DNA of 34,617 bases from a virus (Duplodnaviria > Caudoviricetes). A program made the position numbers and the translations under genes. Positions 2,384 through 34,617 of this stretch are shown here, in pieces (position 1 is the first letter of the stretch; each line of letters opens with the position of its first letter). The stretch lies in the IMG/VR virus record IMGVR_UViG_3300047278_000021, positions 1-34,617 of that record. One strand, written 5' to 3'. The notes below the pieces were generated by a model. It saw only the letters and a list, made by a program, of their open reading frames with translations. It did not search any database and had not been told where the DNA came from.

Positions 2384-2600
2384 CCCAAAACAAATACTGA
2401 GAAACTTGGAAAACGGGTTTTTTATGACGCATCAAGAACAGACTGAAGCCGCTGAGTACATTCGACAGTTGCAATTTTCAAATCAATCGTTAATGGAAGG
2501 TATGCTTCAAAATGCTGAAGAAGTCGTTAGGCTTCGCAGAGAACTTACAGAAGCATTAGGGCTTGACGCTGCAACAAGAATATTTGGAGCAAAGAAATGA
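2370..2600 (+). CDS. hypothetical protein
   Basis: 76 aa overlapping ORF within the operon. Confidence 0.6.
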   Translation: MNLISPKQILRNLENGFFMTHQEQTEAAEYIRQLQFSNQSLMEGMLQNAEEVVRLRRELTEALGLDAATRIFGAKK

Positions 2601-2971
2601 CTTTTGAAGACTTTTGGCTTAAATACCCTCGCAAAGTCGCTAAAAAGACTGCTATGCAAGCGTTTAAGAAACTAGCTATAGATGAACAAGAATTAGCTGT
2701 CGAAGCGTTAGAGACGCATTTAGAGTACTGGAAGATCAAAGAAACAGAAAAAGACTTTATCCCGCACCCTGCCACATGGCTCAATCAAGGTCGTTATTAC
2801 GATGAGCTAGATATGCAGCCAAAGCAGCCAAAGAAGCCAGCTTTGCCGTGGTACTCTACAGATCAGCTGACGATGGACAAAAGTCGAGAGCTGAGCTTGA
2901 CGCCACGACCCGGCGAAGACATGGGCCAATTTAGAACTCGTATTGCTAAGCGTATTTCTGAAACTCAATAA
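2597..2971 (+). CDS. replication-initiator C-terminal-domain-like protein, no N-terminal HTH
   Basis: FEDFWLKYPRKVAKKTA..AFKKL...FIPHPATWLNQGRYYDE matches the C-terminal domain of phage replisome-organiser/O-like proteins and begins at residue 3. Confidence 0.7.
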   Translation: MTFEDFWLKYPRKVAKKTAMQAFKKLAIDEQELAVEALETHLEYWKIKETEKDFIPHPATWLNQGRYYDELDMQPKQPKKPALPWYSTDQLTMDKSRELSLTPRPGEDMGQFRTRIAKRISETQ

Positions 2972-3187: not shown

Positions 3188-3429
3188 AAGATTTATTTGG
3201 AGACGAAGAATTTGACTGGAAACGTGAATGGCAAGGTATGCCAGAGTTTGAGCAGAGTAATCTAAAAACAATTCACTCAATCGTCGTTAATTTCATCACT
3301 GTCGAAGATATGAACGAGTTTTCTGAGCTGATAGGCAAGCGCATACACTTTACGACTAAAAGCGTGATGTATCCCGTTAAAGTAAACGTAGACAAAAAAG
3401 TGTGGATCGACGATGAAACAGCATCCTAA
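3184..3429 (+). CDS. small acidic partner of the glycosyltransferase
   Basis: EWQGMPEFEQ...IVVNF.T.ED...F.ELIG...TKS..YP; GGAG RBS; overlaps the glycosyltransferase gene. Confidence 0.65.
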   Translation: MKDLFGDEEFDWKREWQGMPEFEQSNLKTIHSIVVNFITVEDMNEFSELIGKRIHFTTKSVMYPVKVNVDKKVWIDDETAS

Positions 3430-4258
3430 GTACCCTGTCTACATCATCTCGAAAGGTCGTGCTGATACACGCAAAACAAGCAAAGCTTTAGAACAAATGG
3501 GCGTTGCTTACAGAATTGTGATTGAAGCGCAAGAATACGATCAATATGCTGCTGTAATTGACAAAAAAAAGATCCTTGTATTGCCATTCAGTAATCTTGG
3601 TCTAGGCAGTTACCCTGCTCGCAATTGGTGTTGGGAGCACGCAATCAGTGAAGGACACGCTTTTCACTGGATACTTGATGACAATATTCACGGCTTTGCT
3701 CGACTTTATAAAAACAAACGCATACCGTGTAAATCAGGCGCAATCTTTCGAGCAGCTGAAGACTTCACAGACAGATACGAGAACGTTGCACAAGCAGGCT
3801 TTCAATATCGCTTTTTTGCTGAAGAGCGTACAGATATGCCAGCATTTAGACTGAACACACGCATTTTCTCGTGTATTTTGATACGCAATGATTTACCGCA
3901 TCGTTGGAAGCTCAAATACAACGAAGACGTTGCTCTTTCGCTAGATGTCTTAAAAGACGGATGGTGTACGATTATTTTTAACGCATTTTTGCAAGACAAA
4001 GCGGCAACGCTAAGCATGAAAGGCGGCAACACAACAGAGCTGTACGCTGATGGTGACAAAAAGAAAGAGAAGTCACAGACGCTTGTAGACGCTTATCCAG
4101 ACTTTGCATCGTTAGCTTGGCGCTACGACAGGTGGCATCACAGAGTCGATTTTGACGTTTTCAAGAAAAATATACTCAAAAAGAAACAAAACTTAGCAAT
4201 ATCTGAAGGTATTAACGAATTTGGCATGAAACTCGTCGCAAGAGAAGCGCATGAATGA
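3413..4258 (+). CDS. TAGT/GREB1-like (TET-associated family) putative DNA glycosyltransferase, GT-A fold
   Basis: PVYIISKGRA, ARNWCWEH, HWILDDNI (metal-binding acidic motif), FSCILIRN, NEDVALSL, MKGGNT. Confidence 0.75.
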   Translation: MKQHPKYPVYIISKGRADTRKTSKALEQMGVAYRIVIEAQEYDQYAAVIDKKKILVLPFSNLGLGSYPARNWCWEHAISEGHAFHWILDDNIHGFARLYKNKRIPCKSGAIFRAAEDFTDRYENVAQAGFQYRFFAEERTDMPAFRLNTRIFSCILIRNDLPHRWKLKYNEDVALSLDVLKDGWCTIIFNAFLQDKAATLSMKGGNTTELYADGDKKKEKSQTLVDAYPDFASLAWRYDRWHHRVDFDVFKKNILKKKQNLAISEGINEFGMKLVAREAHE

Positions 4259-5369: not shown

Positions 5370-5726
5370 ATGGACTTTCCTGCTACTTTTGTATCTACGC
5401 TGCTACATAGCGCAACAAACGCACACTTCATGCACTTTCAAACTGAAAGCTACGCAGAACATAAGGCTTTGCAAAAATACTACTCAACTATTGTCGATTT
5501 AGTCGACGATTTTACTGAAACGTATCAAGGCTGCAACGAAAAGATTAAAAAGTACCCAGATGAGTTTCATTTAGCAAAGAATCCTCAGCAATACTTAAAA
5601 AGTCTTAGCGAATTTGTTGAAGAAATCAGAAAAGAGCTGCCGCAAGAGACGCAATTACAGAACATCATTGATGAAATTGCACAGTTAATCGACTCAACGC
5701 TGTATCAATTACGCTTTCTAAAATAA
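5370..5726 (+). CDS. ferritin/Dps-like four-helix protein (DUF5856-like)
   Basis: AHFMHFQT.SYAEHKAL..YY...LVDDFTETYQG...NIIDEIA.LID.TLYQL. Confidence 0.7.
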   Translation: MDFPATFVSTLLHSATNAHFMHFQTESYAEHKALQKYYSTIVDLVDDFTETYQGCNEKIKKYPDEFHLAKNPQQYLKSLSEFVEEIRKELPQETQLQNIIDEIAQLIDSTLYQLRFLK

Positions 5727-29543: not shown

Positions 29544-29726
29544 GTAGTACCTTGCAAACCGTGTTTTGTTTCCCTGAATCATCACGGTTTCAATCTTCAA
29601 ACCTTGCTCTTTAAGCTTGTACACAATATCAGCTAGTCGGGTAGCACGATACAGATTGATTGCTTCCCAACTAGTGATGTGTTTGTGTTTTTTTAAGTGC
29701 AAATAAACAGAATCAATTTTAGTCAT
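29535..29726 (-). CDS. small winged-HTH protein
   Basis: HLKK...ITSWEAI..Y.ATRLADIVYKLK..G..IET...ARY. Confidence 0.75.
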   Translation of the reverse strand: MTKIDSVYLHLKKHKHITSWEAINLYRATRLADIVYKLKEQGLKIETVMIQGNKTRFARYYLA

Positions 29727-29940
29727 GCTTCACCTCATCAAGTGCGTAGAGTAAAGTTTCTTCAGGCAATACAACGCCATCAAACAACGCAGCACCTCTG
29801 TAAATGTGTTTTGATGCCATGCCAACAGGCTTCAACTCCCGCAACTCACGGGCGGCGGCTCTGGCTTTCAAAATCACATCCATATCTTCTACCGCATAAG
29901 CGCACTCAAGCGCATCAATAATTAAATCAATCTTGTTCAT
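29719..29940 (-). CDS. modular accessory protein (KIDLII family), copy 2
   Basis: Likely start MNKIDLIIDAL at 29940; first 26 nt identical to the copy at 443. Confidence 0.7.
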   Translation of the reverse strand: MNKIDLIIDALECAYAVEDMDVILKARAAARELRELKPVGMASKHIYRGAALFDGVVLPEETLLYALDEVKHD

Positions 29941-30193
29941 GGTTACCCCTTGCTCTGATTGCTGTGGCACATTCTTTTTGGCGCTTATACCATTCAGGAC
30001 CGCCACCCCAAACATTTAAAGCAGGGTGTACTCCCATTGACTCACACAACTTTGCACAAGCCTCACGCTCATTTTGGCGCACAAGTTCTGCAAAGCGTTC
30101 AATATGTTCATTGTCAGCAATCCAGCCTTCACACATTTCTGCGTCAAATTCAAACCCTGCTTGTTCAACAAGTTTTTTTAATCGTTTGTTCAT
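29927..30193 (-). CDS. hypothetical protein (ERFAELV...EREACAKLC family)
   Basis: Start MNKRLKKL at 30193 with GAGGA RBS; common phage motif. Confidence 0.7.
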   Translation of the reverse strand: MNKRLKKLVEQAGFEFDAEMCEGWIADNEHIERFAELVRQNEREACAKLCESMGVHPALNVWGGGPEWYKRQKECATAIRARGNHEQD

Positions 30194-30345
30194 TGAATCC
30201 TCACGCATTTGTAAGTGCCAAGTTGCGCCCCTGCTGCGCTGCACAGTTCTGCTGTCGCAAACGTACCCATTGGTCGCCAATCTTTGAAATTGTCATATGG
30301 AGGTTTAGTTGCCACGATTGAAAAATACAAAAGTAAATAAGTCAT
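30190..30345 (-). CDS. small hypothetical protein with Cys pair
   Basis: MTYLLLYF...GTFATAELCSAAG...YKCVRIQ; coupled in the operon. Confidence 0.55.
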   Translation of the reverse strand: MTYLLLYFSIVATKPPYDNFKDWRPMGTFATAELCSAAGAQLGTYKCVRIQ

Positions 30346-30539
30346 AGCATCACCAACGATAAAAGTGGAAAAAAACCAAAAACAAGCGCCAACATTAACA
30401 AACCAACAACCCAAGCCACCAACGGTATGCGCTCGTCAGCTGCCGAATAACTTGTCTGGTTCCGCATTGTGCGAATGGTGCGCCCTGTCCAGTTAGGATC
30501 ACCAAGGTCTGTCAGAAAAGGCCAGTTATGTTTATTCAT
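30342..30539 (-). CDS. small membrane protein
   Basis: MNKHNWPF... with a C-terminal hydrophobic helix. Confidence 0.55.
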   Translation of the reverse strand: MNKHNWPFLTDLGDPNWTGRTIRTMRNQTSYSAADERIPLVAWVVGLLMLALVFGFFPLLSLVML

Positions 30540-30792
30540 TTCCGTCTTCCTCGTTAGCTGTGATTTTTTCAATATGGTTAATGTCAATGAAATGCGTGTA
30601 CATTGGGCAAGCACAAATCAACACATCGTCCCGATCAATTTTGATAAACGGCTCGCCGTTAGAATCTAGTTTTACACCGTCTGCAAACTGATCCATAAGT
30701 TCAGCAATTTTCTTGTCGGATAGTTCGTGCGACAAATCACGCATAAGCTGGCGTTTGCCTTCGTCTGTAAGTTCATGGTATGAATATTTCAT
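30532..30792 (-). CDS. hypothetical protein
   Basis: 86 aa with AAGGTG RBS. Confidence 0.6.
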   Translation of the reverse strand: MKYSYHELTDEGKRQLMRDLSHELSDKKIAELMDQFADGVKLDSNGEPFIKIDRDDVLICACPMYTHFIDINHIEKITANEEDGNE

Positions 30793-30795
30793 GAC

Positions 30796-30945
30796 TTACA
30801 CCTTAAATCCGTTAGAGTTAAGAATTTGTTTTTCTTCTGGACTAGCCAAGCACACAGCCATTTGGTGTTTGTACAAGTAAGCCTGCAATCTTGCTCGTGT
30901 CTTGTCGTTGGGGTTTGCTACAAACGCTTGAATTAATTTACTCAT
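30796..30945 (-). CDS. hypothetical protein, 49 aa (not in ORF track)
   Basis: MSKLIQAFVANPNDKTRARLQAYLYKHQMAVCLASPEEKQILNSNGFKV; ACAGGTG RBS; first gene after the promoter. Confidence 0.65.
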   Translation of the reverse strand: MSKLIQAFVANPNDKTRARLQAYLYKHQMAVCLASPEEKQILNSNGFKV

Positions 30946-30989
30946 TTTATGCACCTGTATTTGTTAAATGGCGTTAGTGCCATAACTAG

Positions 30990-31018
30990 ATATTAAGCTA
31001 TCTAAACAATCAATGCAA
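30990..31018 (-). promoter_or_regulatory. sigma70 promoter with embedded operator
   Basis: TTGCAT-N17-TAATAT on the minus strand; TTAAG-ctat-CTAAA at 30993-31006. Confidence 0.7.
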
Positions 31019-31066
31019 ATGTTTTTTATTAGTGTTTTCACTAATGTTGTATTTTTGCTATGGGGT

Positions 31067-31121
31067 GTGCGAACAATCTAAAGCGAACTAGGAGGAGGGA
31101 CACGCAAAAGAAAGCTCGCAC
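31067..31121 (-). ncRNA. hairpin exposing anti-Shine-Dalgarno CCCUCCUCC
   Basis: Minus strand GTGCGAGC...GTTCGCAC stem; apical loop contains CCCTCCTCCT. Confidence 0.4.
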
Positions 31122-31128
31122 TCAAGAA

Positions 31129-31866
31129 TTATATGCGGTTCTTCTTTTTGTAGAAAGCTAGAAGATACTGAAAACAGTGCCACGCTTCAGTTAAATCGTC
31201 TTCAGAGTGCTCAATCAGTCGAACATCGCCACTTTCTGTAAAGTAGATGTTTGCACATCGAGCTGTAGGCAAACCTAAACCCTCTCGATAAGCTGCGAGC
31301 TGCATGATTTGTTCGTGAAAAGGAGTCACTTTGCTTAAATCGCCCTCTTTACTCTTGAAATCAACGACAATATTTGATGAAATTAGATCAACTTTGCCAC
31401 CAAAGCCGTTTGAAGCAAAAGAACGTTCTGCTTCCCAGATGTGATTAGCGCCAAAATGCGACTCTAACGCAGTGTTTACATTGCTGACAAAATCGGGAAA
31501 TATGTAGTTTTTGCCCCGATAGAATTCTTCTAAAACACCATGCAAACGAGTGCCTCTGTCTGCTGCTTCACGACTTGTGCTTTTAGCGTCAGACATGACA
31601 CGCTGCAACCAGTTTTCTTCTGTCTCGTTCTCAGCTCTTGGTAACGTCAGCGCAGCTAATAGAACCTGCTGCTGCAACCAGTTATTAAGCCCCGGTTTAG
31701 CAAGCAGACCTGTAATCGTTGTGACTGACGGTACTAAGCCACGCTCACGAGCGTCTGTTAATCGAGTATTACGCTCGACGCCATTCTTACCAATAATTCG
31801 ATATGCAGGCGAGCCGTCTGCTGCGTACCAGTGCCCACTTTCTGAGTCTGCTGTTTTAATTATCAT
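31129..31866 (-). CDS. PD-(D/E)XK exonuclease
   Basis: PSVTTI, AADRGTRLH, E....GFGGKVDL...VVDFKS, QLAAY; in the ERF/SSB operon. Confidence 0.85.
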   Translation of the reverse strand: MIIKTADSESGHWYAADGSPAYRIIGKNGVERNTRLTDARERGLVPSVTTITGLLAKPGLNNWLQQQVLLAALTLPRAENETEENWLQRVMSDAKSTSREAADRGTRLHGVLEEFYRGKNYIFPDFVSNVNTALESHFGANHIWEAERSFASNGFGGKVDLISSNIVVDFKSKEGDLSKVTPFHEQIMQLAAYREGLGLPTARCANIYFTESGDVRLIEHSEDDLTEAWHCFQYLLAFYKKKNRI

Positions 31867-32081
31867 TGTTCTCTCGCTTTCATAAATTCATCTGCAATTT
31901 CAAAAGCTCGTGTATTTGCTGCTTTTGCCCATGTTTGATCGTCAATTGGTAGCTGCCAATCACCAGCGCACATACCTTGCAAAACATTTGCAGCAACATA
32001 ATCCCGCAGGCTCATGCCATGAGCCATCCCGTCATCAGCAATCCACGTAGGAAATGCTGGTATTAACTTGTTAAAATTCAT
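31863..32081 (-). CDS. conserved phage protein (PAFP...GMSLRDY.AA family)
   Basis: Characteristic motif; ends AFEIADEFMKARE. Confidence 0.75.
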   Translation of the reverse strand: MNFNKLIPAFPTWIADDGMAHGMSLRDYVAANVLQGMCAGDWQLPIDDQTWAKAANTRAFEIADEFMKAREQ

Positions 32082-32221
32082 TTTTGCACCTGTTTTGCTA
32101 ATTTTTTGAGCATTTCAATAGCGTCTTCAACATCTTGCATAGCTCGCTGATCGAGAACCATGCCATCAAACCATTGTTGAAGACGCCAAGAAATCAATAT
32201 TGCTTCTTCGCTTTGAGTCAA
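32078..32221 (-). CDS. hypothetical protein, 47 aa, TTG start (not in ORF track)
   Basis: (M)TQSEEAILISWRLQQWFDGMVLDQRAMQDVEDAIEMLKKLAKQVQK; AAGGGG RBS; ATGA coupling. Confidence 0.55.
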   Translation of the reverse strand: MTQSEEAILISWRLQQWFDGMVLDQRAMQDVEDAIEMLKKLAKQVQK

Positions 32222-32231
32222 GACTTACCCC

Positions 32232-32654
32232 TTAAAACGGAACATCGTCTTCAAGATCCATCACGTTGCCCTCTTTAATCGCTCGATATGCGTCTTGCTT
32301 AGGTGCTTTTTGAGGTGTTGCAGGTTCTTCAGCAGATTTACCGCCAAGCATCTGCATTTGATCTGCAATCACTTCTGTTGTGTATTGATCTACGCCGTCT
32401 TTGTTGACCCATTTGCGAGTAGTCATACGACCAGCGATGTAGACTTGCGAGCCTTTGCGTAAATAATCGCCGCAAATGCCAGCAAGTTTCTTAAACGTGA
32501 CAATACGAACCCACTCGGTAGATTCTTTTTCGTTAAATTTAGAGCCTACAGCTATTGAGAAGTTGCAGACAGCATCGCCAGCAGGCGAATAGCGCACTTC
32601 TGGATCTTTGCCAAGACGCCCAATAAACTCGCAGCGATTTAAGTCGTTAGCCAT
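32232..32654 (-). CDS. ssb: single-stranded DNA-binding protein
   Basis: LNRCEFIGRLGKDPEVRY...YLRKGSQVYIAGRM.TRKW; acidic DDVPF tail. Confidence 0.96.
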   Translation of the reverse strand: MANDLNRCEFIGRLGKDPEVRYSPAGDAVCNFSIAVGSKFNEKESTEWVRIVTFKKLAGICGDYLRKGSQVYIAGRMTTRKWVNKDGVDQYTTEVIADQMQMLGGKSAEEPATPQKAPKQDAYRAIKEGNVMDLEDDVPF

Positions 32655-33223
32655 TAGTTTGCACCTTTTGCAGTAAGTTGAACTTTGATACCGTCATACA
32701 TCATTTTCAGCACTTCTTTCTGCGTGTCAGGTGCAGACTTGTACCACTTTGCAAAGCACGCTTTTAAAGCGTCTAAATCAGTCATTGCAGACATTTCATC
32801 GACTGCATAGTCTATATCTATCGTCACAATTGTTTGCTGCTTAGGCGGCGTTTTAACAGCTGCTTGACCGTCATCGTCTTCTGAGGCGATTCCTAGCGCA
32901 GCTTGCAAACTGTAACGCTTTGCGTAGGTAATGGCAGATCCGAAACCTTGAGCGTCTTGCTTTGTTGCAGGAATGAACAACACGCCGCAAGACAGCTCTT
33001 GACCAGACTCATGAACAAGAACAGTCTCGACAGAGACGCCACCGTCAGCTGTGTGTAGCTTCTGCACAAAAGCGAGACCATTCGCTGAGAGCGCAGGTCT
33101 TACAGCGTCAATCACAGAAGCGAGCGAGCTGTATGCAGATTTAAAGTGGGGGTTTTTTGCGTCTTTTGCTGCGTGACTCATAGCAGCTTGAGCTTTTACT
33201 AATGACTTAGCTAATTCGTTCAT
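32654..33223 (-). CDS. erf: ERF family single-strand annealing protein
   Basis: KNPHFKSAYSSL; QGFGSAITYAKRYSLQAALGIASEDDDG. Confidence 0.93.
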   Translation of the reverse strand: MNELAKSLVKAQAAMSHAAKDAKNPHFKSAYSSLASVIDAVRPALSANGLAFVQKLHTADGGVSVETVLVHESGQELSCGVLFIPATKQDAQGFGSAITYAKRYSLQAALGIASEDDDGQAAVKTPPKQQTIVTIDIDYAVDEMSAMTDLDALKACFAKWYKSAPDTQKEVLKMMYDGIKVQLTAKGAN

Positions 33224-33268
33224 TTTATGTACCTGTATGGTTTTCCTGACGGGTATGTCAGTAGATAG

Positions 33269-33297
33269 ATATTAAGTCATCTAAACACACAAGTCAA
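33269..33297 (-). promoter_or_regulatory. leftward early promoter (PL-like) with embedded operator
   Basis: TTGACT-N17-TAATAT on the minus strand; TTAAG-tcat-CTAAA at 33272-33285. Confidence 0.75.
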
Positions 33298-33315
33298 ACA
33301 CATACAGAAACATTC

Positions 33316-33331
33316 TGTTAAGATAGCTGCA
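33316..33331 (+). promoter_or_regulatory. extended -10 promoter for a leaderless mRNA, overlapping a degenerate operator
   Basis: TG-t-TAAGAT at 33316-33324, 6 nt before ATG 33331; no SD. Confidence 0.55.
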
Positions 33332-33546
33332 TGAATACAACAGAAATCATTGCTTTTTTAGGCGGCACTTTTGCTGTCGCTAAGCTATGTAAAGTGAGTG
33401 CGCCAGCTGTGTCTCAGTGGCGCAACAACGGTATGCCTAGCGACAAGCTAATCATGCTTGCTGCTGAGCTTGAAAAAAAGTCTGAGGGTAAATTTAGTCG
33501 TAAAGAAATCGAAAACTGGCAACAGATTTGGCCAGAATTACGATAG
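33331..33546 (+). CDS. Cro/YdaS-like HTH regulator
   Basis: IIAFLGGTFAVAKLCKVSAPAVSQWRNNGMP...IWPEL. Confidence 0.85.
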   Translation: MNTTEIIAFLGGTFAVAKLCKVSAPAVSQWRNNGMPSDKLIMLAAELEKKSEGKFSRKEIENWQQIWPELR

Positions 33547-33641: not shown

Positions 33642-33670
33642 TTGACATACAGAAAAGTTAATAATAGAAT
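33642..33670 (+). promoter_or_regulatory. near-consensus sigma70 promoter
   Basis: TTGACA-N17-TAGAAT. Confidence 0.85.
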
Positions 33671-33675
33671 TAAAG

Positions 33676-33765
33676 CGTTGGTGTGGAAGCCGATGTAGAC
33701 CGTTTAAGTCTGTATCTTGCCTCGAAAGGGGCTTCCACCAAGATGCAGATTTAAGCGGTTTTTTT
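33676..33765 (+). terminator. attenuator-like leader RNA with terminator
   Basis: 21-bp stem 33699-33719/33739-33759 (3 G-U) plus T7 tract; inner CCTC-gaaa-GGGG; loop sequence GGCTTCCAC complementary to upstream GTGGAAGCC. Confidence 0.75.
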
Positions 33766-33779
33766 ATGCCTGATCGTAG

Positions 33780-34030
33780 ACCAAAGTTTGCTGCGAAGAA
33801 ATAAGGACTCAGAACCTGACAGGTGTAGTGAATTGTGAGTACGTTGTAATCTGGAGGCTCTAACGACATACCAGCGGATTACGATAGCAAGCATACTGGG
33901 GGAAAGTGAATGAAACACTGCACACATAGGCGGCGAAGTCAGCACCTATTTCACGAAAGGCTGACGGGTTCTGTGGCTCCGAAAAGCATAGATGAAGGCC
34001 TATTTAGGTAGGCTAGATTCGCTCACCAAA
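33780..34030 (+). ncRNA. candidate multi-stem, pseudoknotted ncRNA
   Basis: Nested helices 33810-17/33966-73, 33823-30/33916-23, 33846-53/33875-82, 33926-30/33945-49; pseudoknot 33938-43/33960-65; hairpin 33998-34013; no + strand ORF in the track. Confidence 0.55.
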
Positions 34031-34039
34031 AAGCATCAA

Positions 34040-34200
34040 TACTAGAACAGATATATAACTGTTTGATAATTAAAGATAAAAGTGATTTAAATAAAAATGA
34101 CAATTTTATAGTTGAGCAAAAGTTATGCACAGGCAAGATAAAAATGGTTCAAAAATTACATCTGTTGTAAAACTGCAAAACATCTAGTTTGCTATTTTTT
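34040..34200. other. candidate replication origin: AT-rich tract with DnaA box
   Basis: AT-rich intergenic DNA; TTATGCACA at 34123-34131 fits TTWTNCACA. Confidence 0.45.
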
Positions 34201-34243: not shown

Positions 34244-34426
34244 ATGACGATATGGGATTGGATCTTTGTCTTCTACGCTGCAATTGCATTAGCTCTGTTT
34301 GCTGCAATTTGGCTCTGGAAGACGCCTACAGAGAAAGCTGCACGACTGACTGAGAACAATCATTGTCAGTGTTTGCATCCGATTAAATGTGATTTATTTG
34401 ATAAATGTATGAGGAATGAAAAATGA
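34244..34426 (+). CDS. small membrane protein with C-terminal Cys cluster
   Basis: N-terminal TM; CQC..PIKC....KC; GAGG RBS. Confidence 0.65.
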   Translation: MTIWDWIFVFYAAIALALFAAIWLWKTPTEKAARLTENNHCQCLHPIKCDLFDKCMRNEK

Positions 34427-34617
34427 GCAAGATTGATTTAATTATTGAAAACATTGAGTACTCCAAGCTAGTCACGGTGCAAGCACACATTGATGAGTTG
34501 CTTGAAGAAGCCCTAGCCGCTGCCCGTTCGCTGCGGAAGTTGAAGCCTGTGGCGTGGGAAACGTATGGTCTTACTTTTGCAGACGGAAAAGTACTTTATC
34601 ACACGCACCCAAAACAG
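34423..34617 (+). CDS. modular accessory protein (KIDLII family), copy 3, 3'-truncated
   Basis: MSKIDLIIENIEYSKLVTVQAHIDELLEEALAAARSLRKLKPVAWETYG... runs off the window end. Confidence 0.7.
   Translation, partial: MSKIDLIIENIEYSKLVTVQAHIDELLEEALAAARSLRKLKPVAWETYGLTFADGKVLYHTHPKQ

Follow-up and report, generated by a model that had tools for sequence, protein, structure and literature searches.

RNA-dependent replication origins are already known from ColE1, T4 and the lactococcal phage c2. In ColE1 a non-coding RNA takes the place of an initiator protein, as stated in the passage of PMC5043065 on this plasmid, and the corresponding passage of PMC4412123 specifies that a stretch of rG in the RNA must pair with a stretch of dC in the template. 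The T4 passage of the latter source describes oriF and oriG as a promoter together with a DNA-unwinding element that forms an R-loop (PMC4412123). For the Ceduovirus phages c2, bIL67 and 923, the section of PMC7150918 that deals with their origins reports three non-homologous types of non-coding origin, with a PE1 transcript, that replicate plasmids without phage proteins. Weinberg et al., in the part of PMC5737381 concerned with such elements, suggested a part in replication for three other motifs, and cautioned that motifs of this kind may be single-stranded DNA.

The sequence analysed here, hereafter the window, is a phage record of 34,617 nt (CheckV completeness 100%; end repeats absent) that carries a structured non-coding RNA downstream of its Cro-like gene. 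With moderate confidence, and judging from comparative sequence data, we read this element as a ColE1-like R-loop origin RNA that replaces the O/P initiator pair. Since the RNA contains a short address that is copied just downstream, it likely pairs with its own DNA and opens the replication start.

Like ColE1 RNA II, the locus combines the lack of an encoded initiator with a folded non-coding RNA, an upstream segment of which is predicted to pair with the downstream template. It differs from RNA II in the length of the conserved structure (about 195 nt here versus 550 nt), in its anchor, where a word of about 20 nt that varies from phage to phage replaces the rG/dC run, in the AT-rich tract that follows, and in its control, apparently exerted by a leader. 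The search for ColE1-family homology gave one 27-nt chance match in a plasmid, and at E ≤ 10 no Rfam match to such a replicon or to RNA I. With the T4 origins the locus shares a promoter, a transcript and a downstream unwinding tract, and primase could act on the displaced strand; unlike here, the T4 passage of PMC4412123 mentions neither a folded pseudoknotted RNA nor a guide repeat. The resemblance to Ceduovirus, where the cassettes lie at the head of the early operon, lies in interchangeable and mutually non-homologous non-coding cassettes, represented here by RF02932 and two further elements, X and Y, in one slot. Unlike in Ceduovirus, the host belongs to a different phylum, the slot is a lambdoid one filled either by one of the cassettes or by an O-like initiator gene, and there is a self-matching repeat. 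No homology to Ceduovirus origins was detected: with 33835-34045 as query, blastn found five short matches among 50,697 phage records, none of them lactococcal. The slot after cro and a leader, and the repeat with its AT-rich tract, recall the lambdoid O/ori arrangement, the closest relatives being of the DUF1376 type. Unlike lambdoid O/ori with its P loader, the locus has no N-terminal DNA-binding initiator domain and no loader-like gene, and its two repeats lie inside the RNA, whereas the lambdoid ori has four inside a gene. The RF02932 element is homologous to none of these replicons and, by analogy, probably has a similar mode of action, in which the G run is replaced by a variable guide.

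A scan of the 56 ORFs of the window against PHROGs recovered terminase, portal, capsid, lysis, Erf, SSB, exonuclease, RusA, HNH and Cro-like genes, whereas matches to a full initiator, a polymerase, a primase or a helicase were absent. The window's record was also searched with DnaB_C and gave no DnaB-type helicase. Three initiator profiles (DUF1376, phrog_270 and HTH_36) were searched in whole records, and in the window none of them yielded a DUF1376 domain, an intact N-terminal half of phrog_270 or an HTH_36 match over the cut-off. The Cro-like gene (33331..33546, plus strand; PF14549 over the cut-off, phrog_35) serves as the slot marker. It is directly divergent from the Erf/SSB/exonuclease operon (window positions 29700-33546), and the PHROGs scan detected neither a second repressor nor an integrase. 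The preliminary description of this DNA had allowed for a conventional initiator or helicase in the unassembled part of the genome. One hidden between the contig ends is unlikely, given the CheckV value of 100% and a close relative (L255, whose copy of the ORF at 2597-2971 is 84% identical) in which the 1232 nt from the RNA to that ORF are unbroken; on this contig, which is also locus L055, small ORFs are all that separates them. Paralogous small ORFs (34423-34617 and 443-715), nearly identical over about 45 residues, flank the contig break.

The content of the slot was compared among 80 loci fetched with the window's Cro, 59 of which had at least 700 nt downstream. In these 59 the slot held a DUF1376 gene 10 times, RF02932 once, element X 16 times and element Y 32 times, and never two of them. 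Adding loci selected with ORF 2597-2971 (n = 95) gave 10 with DUF1376, 16 with RF02932, 34 with X, 32 with Y and 3 with other content. A similar promoter, hairpin and T-run preceded the slot content in the Cro relatives, and Pfam confirmed DUF1376 on all four slot genes tested. At the level of whole records, DUF1376 was found in 0 of 50 RNA-bearing records (0 of the 23 that were at least 90% complete) and in 11 of 44 comparison records, only one DUF1376 record being near-complete and the slot itself being visible in 10. RF02932 was found in 0 of the same 44, with the window record and Paraburkholderia/Caballeronia genomes as positive controls for the search. A loader-like gene adjoined DUF1376 in 10 of 10 DUF1376-slot loci, as against one RNA locus. 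None of the phrog_270 matches in RNA-bearing records had an intact N-terminal half, and HTH_36 exceeded its cut-off in none of 68 records. The exclusion of a DUF1376 initiator by the RNA, named as a check in the preliminary description, is seen both in the slot and in the 50 RNA-bearing records. The broader proposal made there, that the RNA may replace an initiator, is strongly backed by these comparisons, through the slot swap, this exclusion and the self-matching repeat; its two outer helices, its DnaA box and a specific partnership with ORF 2597-2971 are not supported.

Element X (L335, L329, L400, L254; about 200-500 nt after cro) is non-coding and about 250 nt long; compensatory changes are visible in it, and the three loci scanned gave no Rfam match. 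Element Y (L344, L385, L391, L392; about 210-560 nt after cro) is a non-coding cassette of about 330 nt that ends in G runs, which favour R-loops. It had no Rfam match in the two loci scanned, and the complete Y records tested gave no DUF1376, phrog_270 or DnaB_C matches.

The core of the RNA in the window (33844..33969, plus strand) is a member of Rfam family RF02932 (Betaproteobacteria-1), with 80.3 bits against a cut-off of 49.4 over the full model (positions 1-120); the earlier statement that it fits no named family was mistaken. Rfam types RF02932 as Gene; sRNA and catalogues it without a known function, and literature searches by family name, accession and concept found no published one. 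No other Rfam match in the region was credible at E ≤ 10. Resemblances to a group I intron, RNase P or a ribozyme were dropped, there being no Rfam match at E ≤ 10, and the covariance models ARRPOF, GEBRO and PAGEV, which we take to be included in Rfam 15, gave no match at the same threshold. We presume that the family goes back to Weinberg et al. 2017; the main text of PMC5737381, in its passages on such motifs, does not name Betaproteobacteria-1. By blastn, no cultured phage or plasmid carried the RNA variant of the window.

Homologs were collected with two search patterns. The first yielded 11 viral loci, all 11 over the Rfam cut-off, and the second 120 viral loci (an estimated 570 or so IMG/VR stretches) together with 121 loci in genomes (estimate: about 140). 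The viral loci served to build a nucleotide profile, which retained 209 of 255 matches, namely all 132 viral or own sequences (partly by construction) and 77 of 123 genomic ones, mostly from Burkholderiales; RF02932 was over the cut-off in five of five betaproteobacterial genomes tested. The alignment of 197 full-length sequences was reduced to 134 non-redundant members with a mean identity of 55%. Covariation was tested on the 92 of these 134 that reached at least 95 bits, against 60 tree simulations of independent columns, a simplified in-house version of a tree null and not R-scape.

Because the fold of the 231-nt sequence alone was unremarkable (z = -1.47), helices were judged by their homologs. 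Helices P2 (33890-93/33918-21), P3 (33926-30/33945-49) and P4, and the three pseudoknots PK1 (33871-74/33896-99), PK2 (33906-10/33950-54) and PK3 (33938-43/33960-65), all on the plus strand, covary, with pairs reaching 1.38 against a null maximum of 0.55. The printed RF02932 consensus line leaves PK1, PK2 and P3 unpaired. One covariation, 33931/33944 (U-G or C-A), is non-canonical. All the motifs named in the preliminary description are present in the sequence, and they fared differently among the homologs. Its pseudoknot, formed by ATAGG/CCTAT and GTCAGC/GCTGAC, stands, with mutual information of 0.9-1.4, above all 60 tree-simulated nulls. The helix 33846-53/33875-82, part of P1 (33844-54/33873-84, plus strand), showed mutual information of 0.38-0.79 in a first alignment but was not significant in the alignment used with the tree null, where it is poorly aligned. 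Its reading of wobble pairs on the plus strand holds as well: 142 G-U cells versus 33 A-C cells were counted there, as expected of a plus-strand molecule. The two outer helices did no better than controls. The pairing CAGAACCT/GGGTTCTG, with its 5' arm at 33810, forms 8 bp in 6 of 80 homologs versus 5.3% in controls, and CAGAACCT belongs instead to a local hairpin with compensating arms; GTGTAGTG/CACTGCAC occurs in 8 of 80 homologs versus 10.9% in controls, and the family pairs 33890-93 with 33918-21 in its stead. The Rfam match, PK1, PK2 and the repeat described below were absent from that description.

Conservation extends about 67 nt past the Rfam model, which ends without P4, P5 and the repeat R1/R2, to position 34036. 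A relative's contig matches the window up to the same position, with different letters replacing 34037-34118. Within this plus-strand extension, the predicted guide R1 (33967..33989, outside the Rfam model) has its 5' block held by the covarying hairpin P4 (33970-72/33990-92); its variable 7-mer (33982-88) is placed in the loop of that hairpin by the local fold of the window. Of 66 members, 44 form hairpin P5 (34002..34018) in the family register 34002-07/34013-18 with 5 bp or more; the GCCTAT/GTAGGC register proposed earlier is found in 6 of 66. The predicted DNA target R2 (34016..34036) is the 3' end of the conserved element. R1 and R2 are linked by ten column pairs about 48-50 nt apart that covary by identity and not by complementarity (E ≤ 0.03, tree null). 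Across 92 sequences the R1 7-mer has 68 distinct forms; it agrees with its own R2 at 5.2 of 7 positions, versus 2.5 of 7 when compared across lineages. It has no complement inside the RNA (4.25 versus 4.44 nt in controls). The 5' block, in R1 as in R2, also has possible pairing partners within the RNA (columns 137/160 and 160/187). Third copies of the repeat are at chance level (11 of 44 loci versus 7.7 expected copies), and a U-tract end after R2 is rare (2 of 92). A template/variable repeat of the DGR type was considered and rejected, as there is no reverse transcriptase among the annotated neighbours and the substitution bias includes pyrimidines.

The mismatches between the two copies carry a direction. 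If R1 RNA lies on the strand complementary to R2, mismatches of R1 G with R2 A and of R1 U with R2 C form wobble pairs, and the reverse ones do not. Wobble-compatible mismatches outnumbered incompatible ones by 60 to 24 in the alignment (p = 0.004 against composition), and by 51 to 22 (61 lineages) or 44 to 21 (40 lineages) when counted by lineage. A motif-anchored test on 71 of 134 members, anchoring being impossible for the other 63 and the extension being absent from some members, gave 49 versus 14 (p = 1e-5), plus 43 versus 0 at a near-constant site. Pairing of R1 RNA with the R2 template also gave the stabler duplex in 69 of 71 members, with RNA parameters as a proxy, a comparison that is not independent of the anchored test. 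An A-rich composition next to the AT tract could account for the purine part of the bias; the pyrimidine part is opposed to such a drift but amounts to 14 versus 5 only. These patterns suggest that R1 RNA likely pairs with the template strand of R2.

Beyond R2 lies an AT-rich tract (34037..34200; AT 0.76, and 0.80 over 34037-34120), the predicted unwinding element. It is the most AT-rich 150-nt segment of the genome, and in 65 homologs the tract has a median at the 95th percentile of its own locus and falls in the top tenth in 63%, which supports the AT-rich tract noticed earlier. The DnaA box placed in it, a 9-mer at 34123, is not conserved (4 of 65 loci versus 2.9 expected), and sites with one mismatch to the box occur five times in the whole window. 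No GC-skew switch was seen at the element (13 of 27 primase-type loci), and GC skew in the window is confounded by the transcription switch at cro.

In the mechanism that we propose, transcription would start at a promoter after cro and run through an attenuating leader. Covariation shows that the RNA folds into a core with three pseudoknots and the hairpins P4 and P5, and that the phage-specific word R1, in the P4 loop, is repeated about 50 nt downstream as R2, the two copies changing together. As the wobble bias suggests, R1 RNA would pair with the template strand at R2, and P5 would tie up part of the R2 sequence in the transcript. By analogy with ColE1 and T4, the R1/R2 pairing may anchor a persistent R-loop that reaches into the AT-rich tract, where either the RNA end would prime the leading strand or the displaced strand would load helicase and primase. 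These two enzymes would come from the host in the phage of the window, which encodes neither, and from the phage in the relatives with primase-helicase modules. A more far-reaching version, tentative and on the whole unlikely, makes RF02932 an RNA-guided replication initiator, in which the core is a scaffold, the P4 loop a reprogrammable guide, the matching DNA word is found even in trans and the AT tract is opened, and which belongs to an uncatalogued panel of origin RNAs (X, Y, W and others). In such a guided initiator the pseudoknotted core would perhaps dock a helicase loader of the host or the phage; origin RNAs would have replaced O/P proteins across freshwater betaproteobacterial phages, with base pairing setting replicon specificity.

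The neighbourhood of the RNA was surveyed in 91 viral loci with long flanks. A replication gene was nearby in 57: a ParB/SF2-helicase/TOPRIM-primase module in 28, a C-terminal-only initiator of the ORF 2597-2971 type in 24, a primase-helicase in four and another SF2 helicase in one. Six loci had cro only, and 28 had neither a recognised replication gene nor cro in their flanks. Among 80 loci selected with the primase, the RNA was present in 28 (18 of the 56 with good flanks), a count biased upward because the primase query was taken from RNA-bearing loci; in all 28 it followed the primase on the same strand, at a distance of 17-653 nt. Fifty primase loci were RNA-negative and had a downstream flank of 1 kb or more, and 29 of them matched motifs of other recurring non-coding elements. 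One of these, element W (L412, L418, L423, L429 and others), has a G-rich end and was recognised by motif in 24 of the 50; further recurring non-coding cassettes downstream of the primase are those of L421/L422/L446 and of L427/L433/L441/L454.

Paraburkholderia and Caballeronia carry one to four RF02932 copies per genome, many of which stand alone as cassettes some 350 nt long that have a near-constant repeat and a promoter-like site. These solo cassettes (L140, L157, L160, L168, L171, L173, L220 and others) often lie near DNA-repair genes (LigD, Ku, a Pol III alpha-like gene and SRAP) and not near phage genes; they may be remnants, RNAs that have been domesticated, or a trace of mobility. Together with the 28 of 91 loci without a recognised replication gene or cro and the lack of a GC-skew switch, they speak against the origin reading. 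They also give ground to another explanation, in which the element is an RNA cassette, mobile or selfish, that targets its own 3' end in the manner of a bridge RNA and spreads into a hotspot, or else is a trans-acting sRNA with an unrelated role. Several solo copies per genome, the sharp 3' boundary at R2, the loci that lack recognised replication neighbours and the Rfam type sRNA all fit this account. A parasite would, however, be expected beside an initiator gene, which 0 of 50 records show, and the RNA-bearing phages have no other detected initiator. Moreover, the annotated neighbour clusters contain no recombinase, reverse transcriptase or transposase, and terminal repeats are not evident by eye in the flanks. 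We regard a mobile cassette or unrelated sRNA as distinctly unlikely.

The proteins that might serve an origin at this locus bear on a second alternative. ORF 2597-2971 (plus strand) is a stand-alone C-terminal half of an O-like initiator, matching phrog_270 positions 179-260 of 383, and a possible accessory factor. Its homologs stood alone in 80 of 80 cases and were accompanied by the RNA in 24 of 80 loci (13 of the 35 with at least 5 kb upstream). In L332 the homolog occurs together with DUF1376, it is missing from five near-complete records picked with Cro (four of Y type and one of X type), and other RNA-bearing phages use primase-helicase modules. The preliminary description had named co-occurrence of this ORF with the RNA as a check; the 24 of 80 loci and L332 do not support a specific partnership. 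Its predicted structure (pLDDT 89) gave nothing at E ≤ 0.001 in Foldseek and a best Z of 6.1 with VIA, on a 42-residue piece. Residues 83-124 form a three-helix tail with weak likeness (Z 4-4.5) to SAP, LEM and Rho N-terminal domains and to baseplate pieces; nucleic-acid binding by this tail, judged from the model, is possible. ORF 1654-1929, a weak winged-helix match, occurs with all slot types, including DUF1376 phages, and in 3 of 91 RNA loci, which makes a split initiator unlikely.

On these proteins, R1 and R2 could be read as iterons of a protein-read DNA origin bound by ORF 2597-2971 or ORF 1654-1929 as a split initiator, the fold being secondary or formed by single-stranded DNA. Lambdoid origins have this layout, with AT-rich DNA behind a direct repeat; the window does hold a weak winged-helix ORF and a C-terminal initiator half with its weakly SAP-, LEM- and Rho-like tail, and motifs of this kind may be single-stranded DNA according to the relevant part of Weinberg et al. 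(PMC5737381). A protein that reads double-stranded DNA, however, gives no ground for the directional wobble bias, and the repeat has two copies only, with third copies at chance (11 of 44 loci versus 7.7 expected). The winged-helix ORF is shared with DUF1376 phages and present in just 3 of 91 RNA loci, and the same RNA stands alongside three unrelated protein sets, with G-U prevailing over A-C by 142 to 33. We consider such iterons very unlikely and retain the R-loop origin as the preferred reading.

The region after cro from which this origin RNA would be transcribed shows no sign of coding, as had been described: its longest stop-free stretch on the plus strand is 52 codons, the span lengths of homologs are evenly spread over the three frames (28/22/21), and its two minus-strand ORFs have no Pfam match. 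A predicted sigma-70-like promoter (33642..33670, plus strand) matches the consensus at 11 of 12 positions with a 17-nt spacer. The TTGACA-17-TAGAAT promoter of the preliminary description is thus present, but such sites are not enriched in the region (2 versus 3.1 in shuffles). A similar TTGACA site follows cro in relatives irrespective of slot content. The leader (33676..33765, plus strand) consists of a long hairpin (z = -6.28) and a T7 run, and is a predicted attenuator; the earlier assignment as an attenuator finds support in this hairpin and its T run, and not in a canonical terminator search (0 found). Of 80 members, 50 have a T-tract upstream of the RNA, and leaders of this kind also stand ahead of DUF1376 in L331, L332 and L403 and ahead of the other slot RNAs. 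The leader hairpin and T run are variable in sequence and match no Rfam family; an alternative pairing, 33680-91/33730-39, could act as a switch.

Between the leader and the core lies an optional small hairpin module (33777..33819, plus strand; outside RF02932) with a conserved 8-nt loop at 33807-14. It was found in 48 viral loci, with complementary arms of several types in 46 of them; the RF02932 pattern lies 3' of it in 13 of the 48, and the module is absent in L030. In loci L488-L535 it appears as a two-hairpin module with an invariant 8-nt loop that precedes RF02932 or other structured elements (L493, L494, L509). The module is a candidate protein-binding or antitermination site. In lambdoid phages, put and nut sites are located after cro. 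That the RNA itself is a transcription-control element for the early rightward operon, such as a put-like antiterminator or attenuation platform with R1/R2 as an RNA switch or polymerase anchor, would suit its place after cro and a terminator-like leader, co-directional with the downstream early genes and without a terminator of its own, but of the features of put position alone fits, it would not explain why the DUF1376 initiator and the loader-like gene beside it are strictly excluded, and the smaller optional hairpin module upstream is a better candidate for such a role, which together make it highly improbable.

If the R-loop origin reading is correct, it would assign a role to RF02932, an Rfam orphan widespread in phages (one pattern alone is present in about 570 IMG/VR stretches), and would explain how replication starts in many complete phage genomes of 33-36 kb without a detectable initiator, helicase or primase. 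Literature searches did not find any other compact RNA with pseudoknots that takes the place of an O-like gene one-for-one and whose guide is self-matching and specific to the lineage. The repeat makes the origin idea directly testable by compensatory mutation, and small orthogonal, protein-free origins are a possible yield. Elsewhere in the window, a glycosyltransferase-like gene (3413-4258; phrog_842) and a gene resembling a starvation-inducible regulator (5370-5726; phrog_858) were observed.
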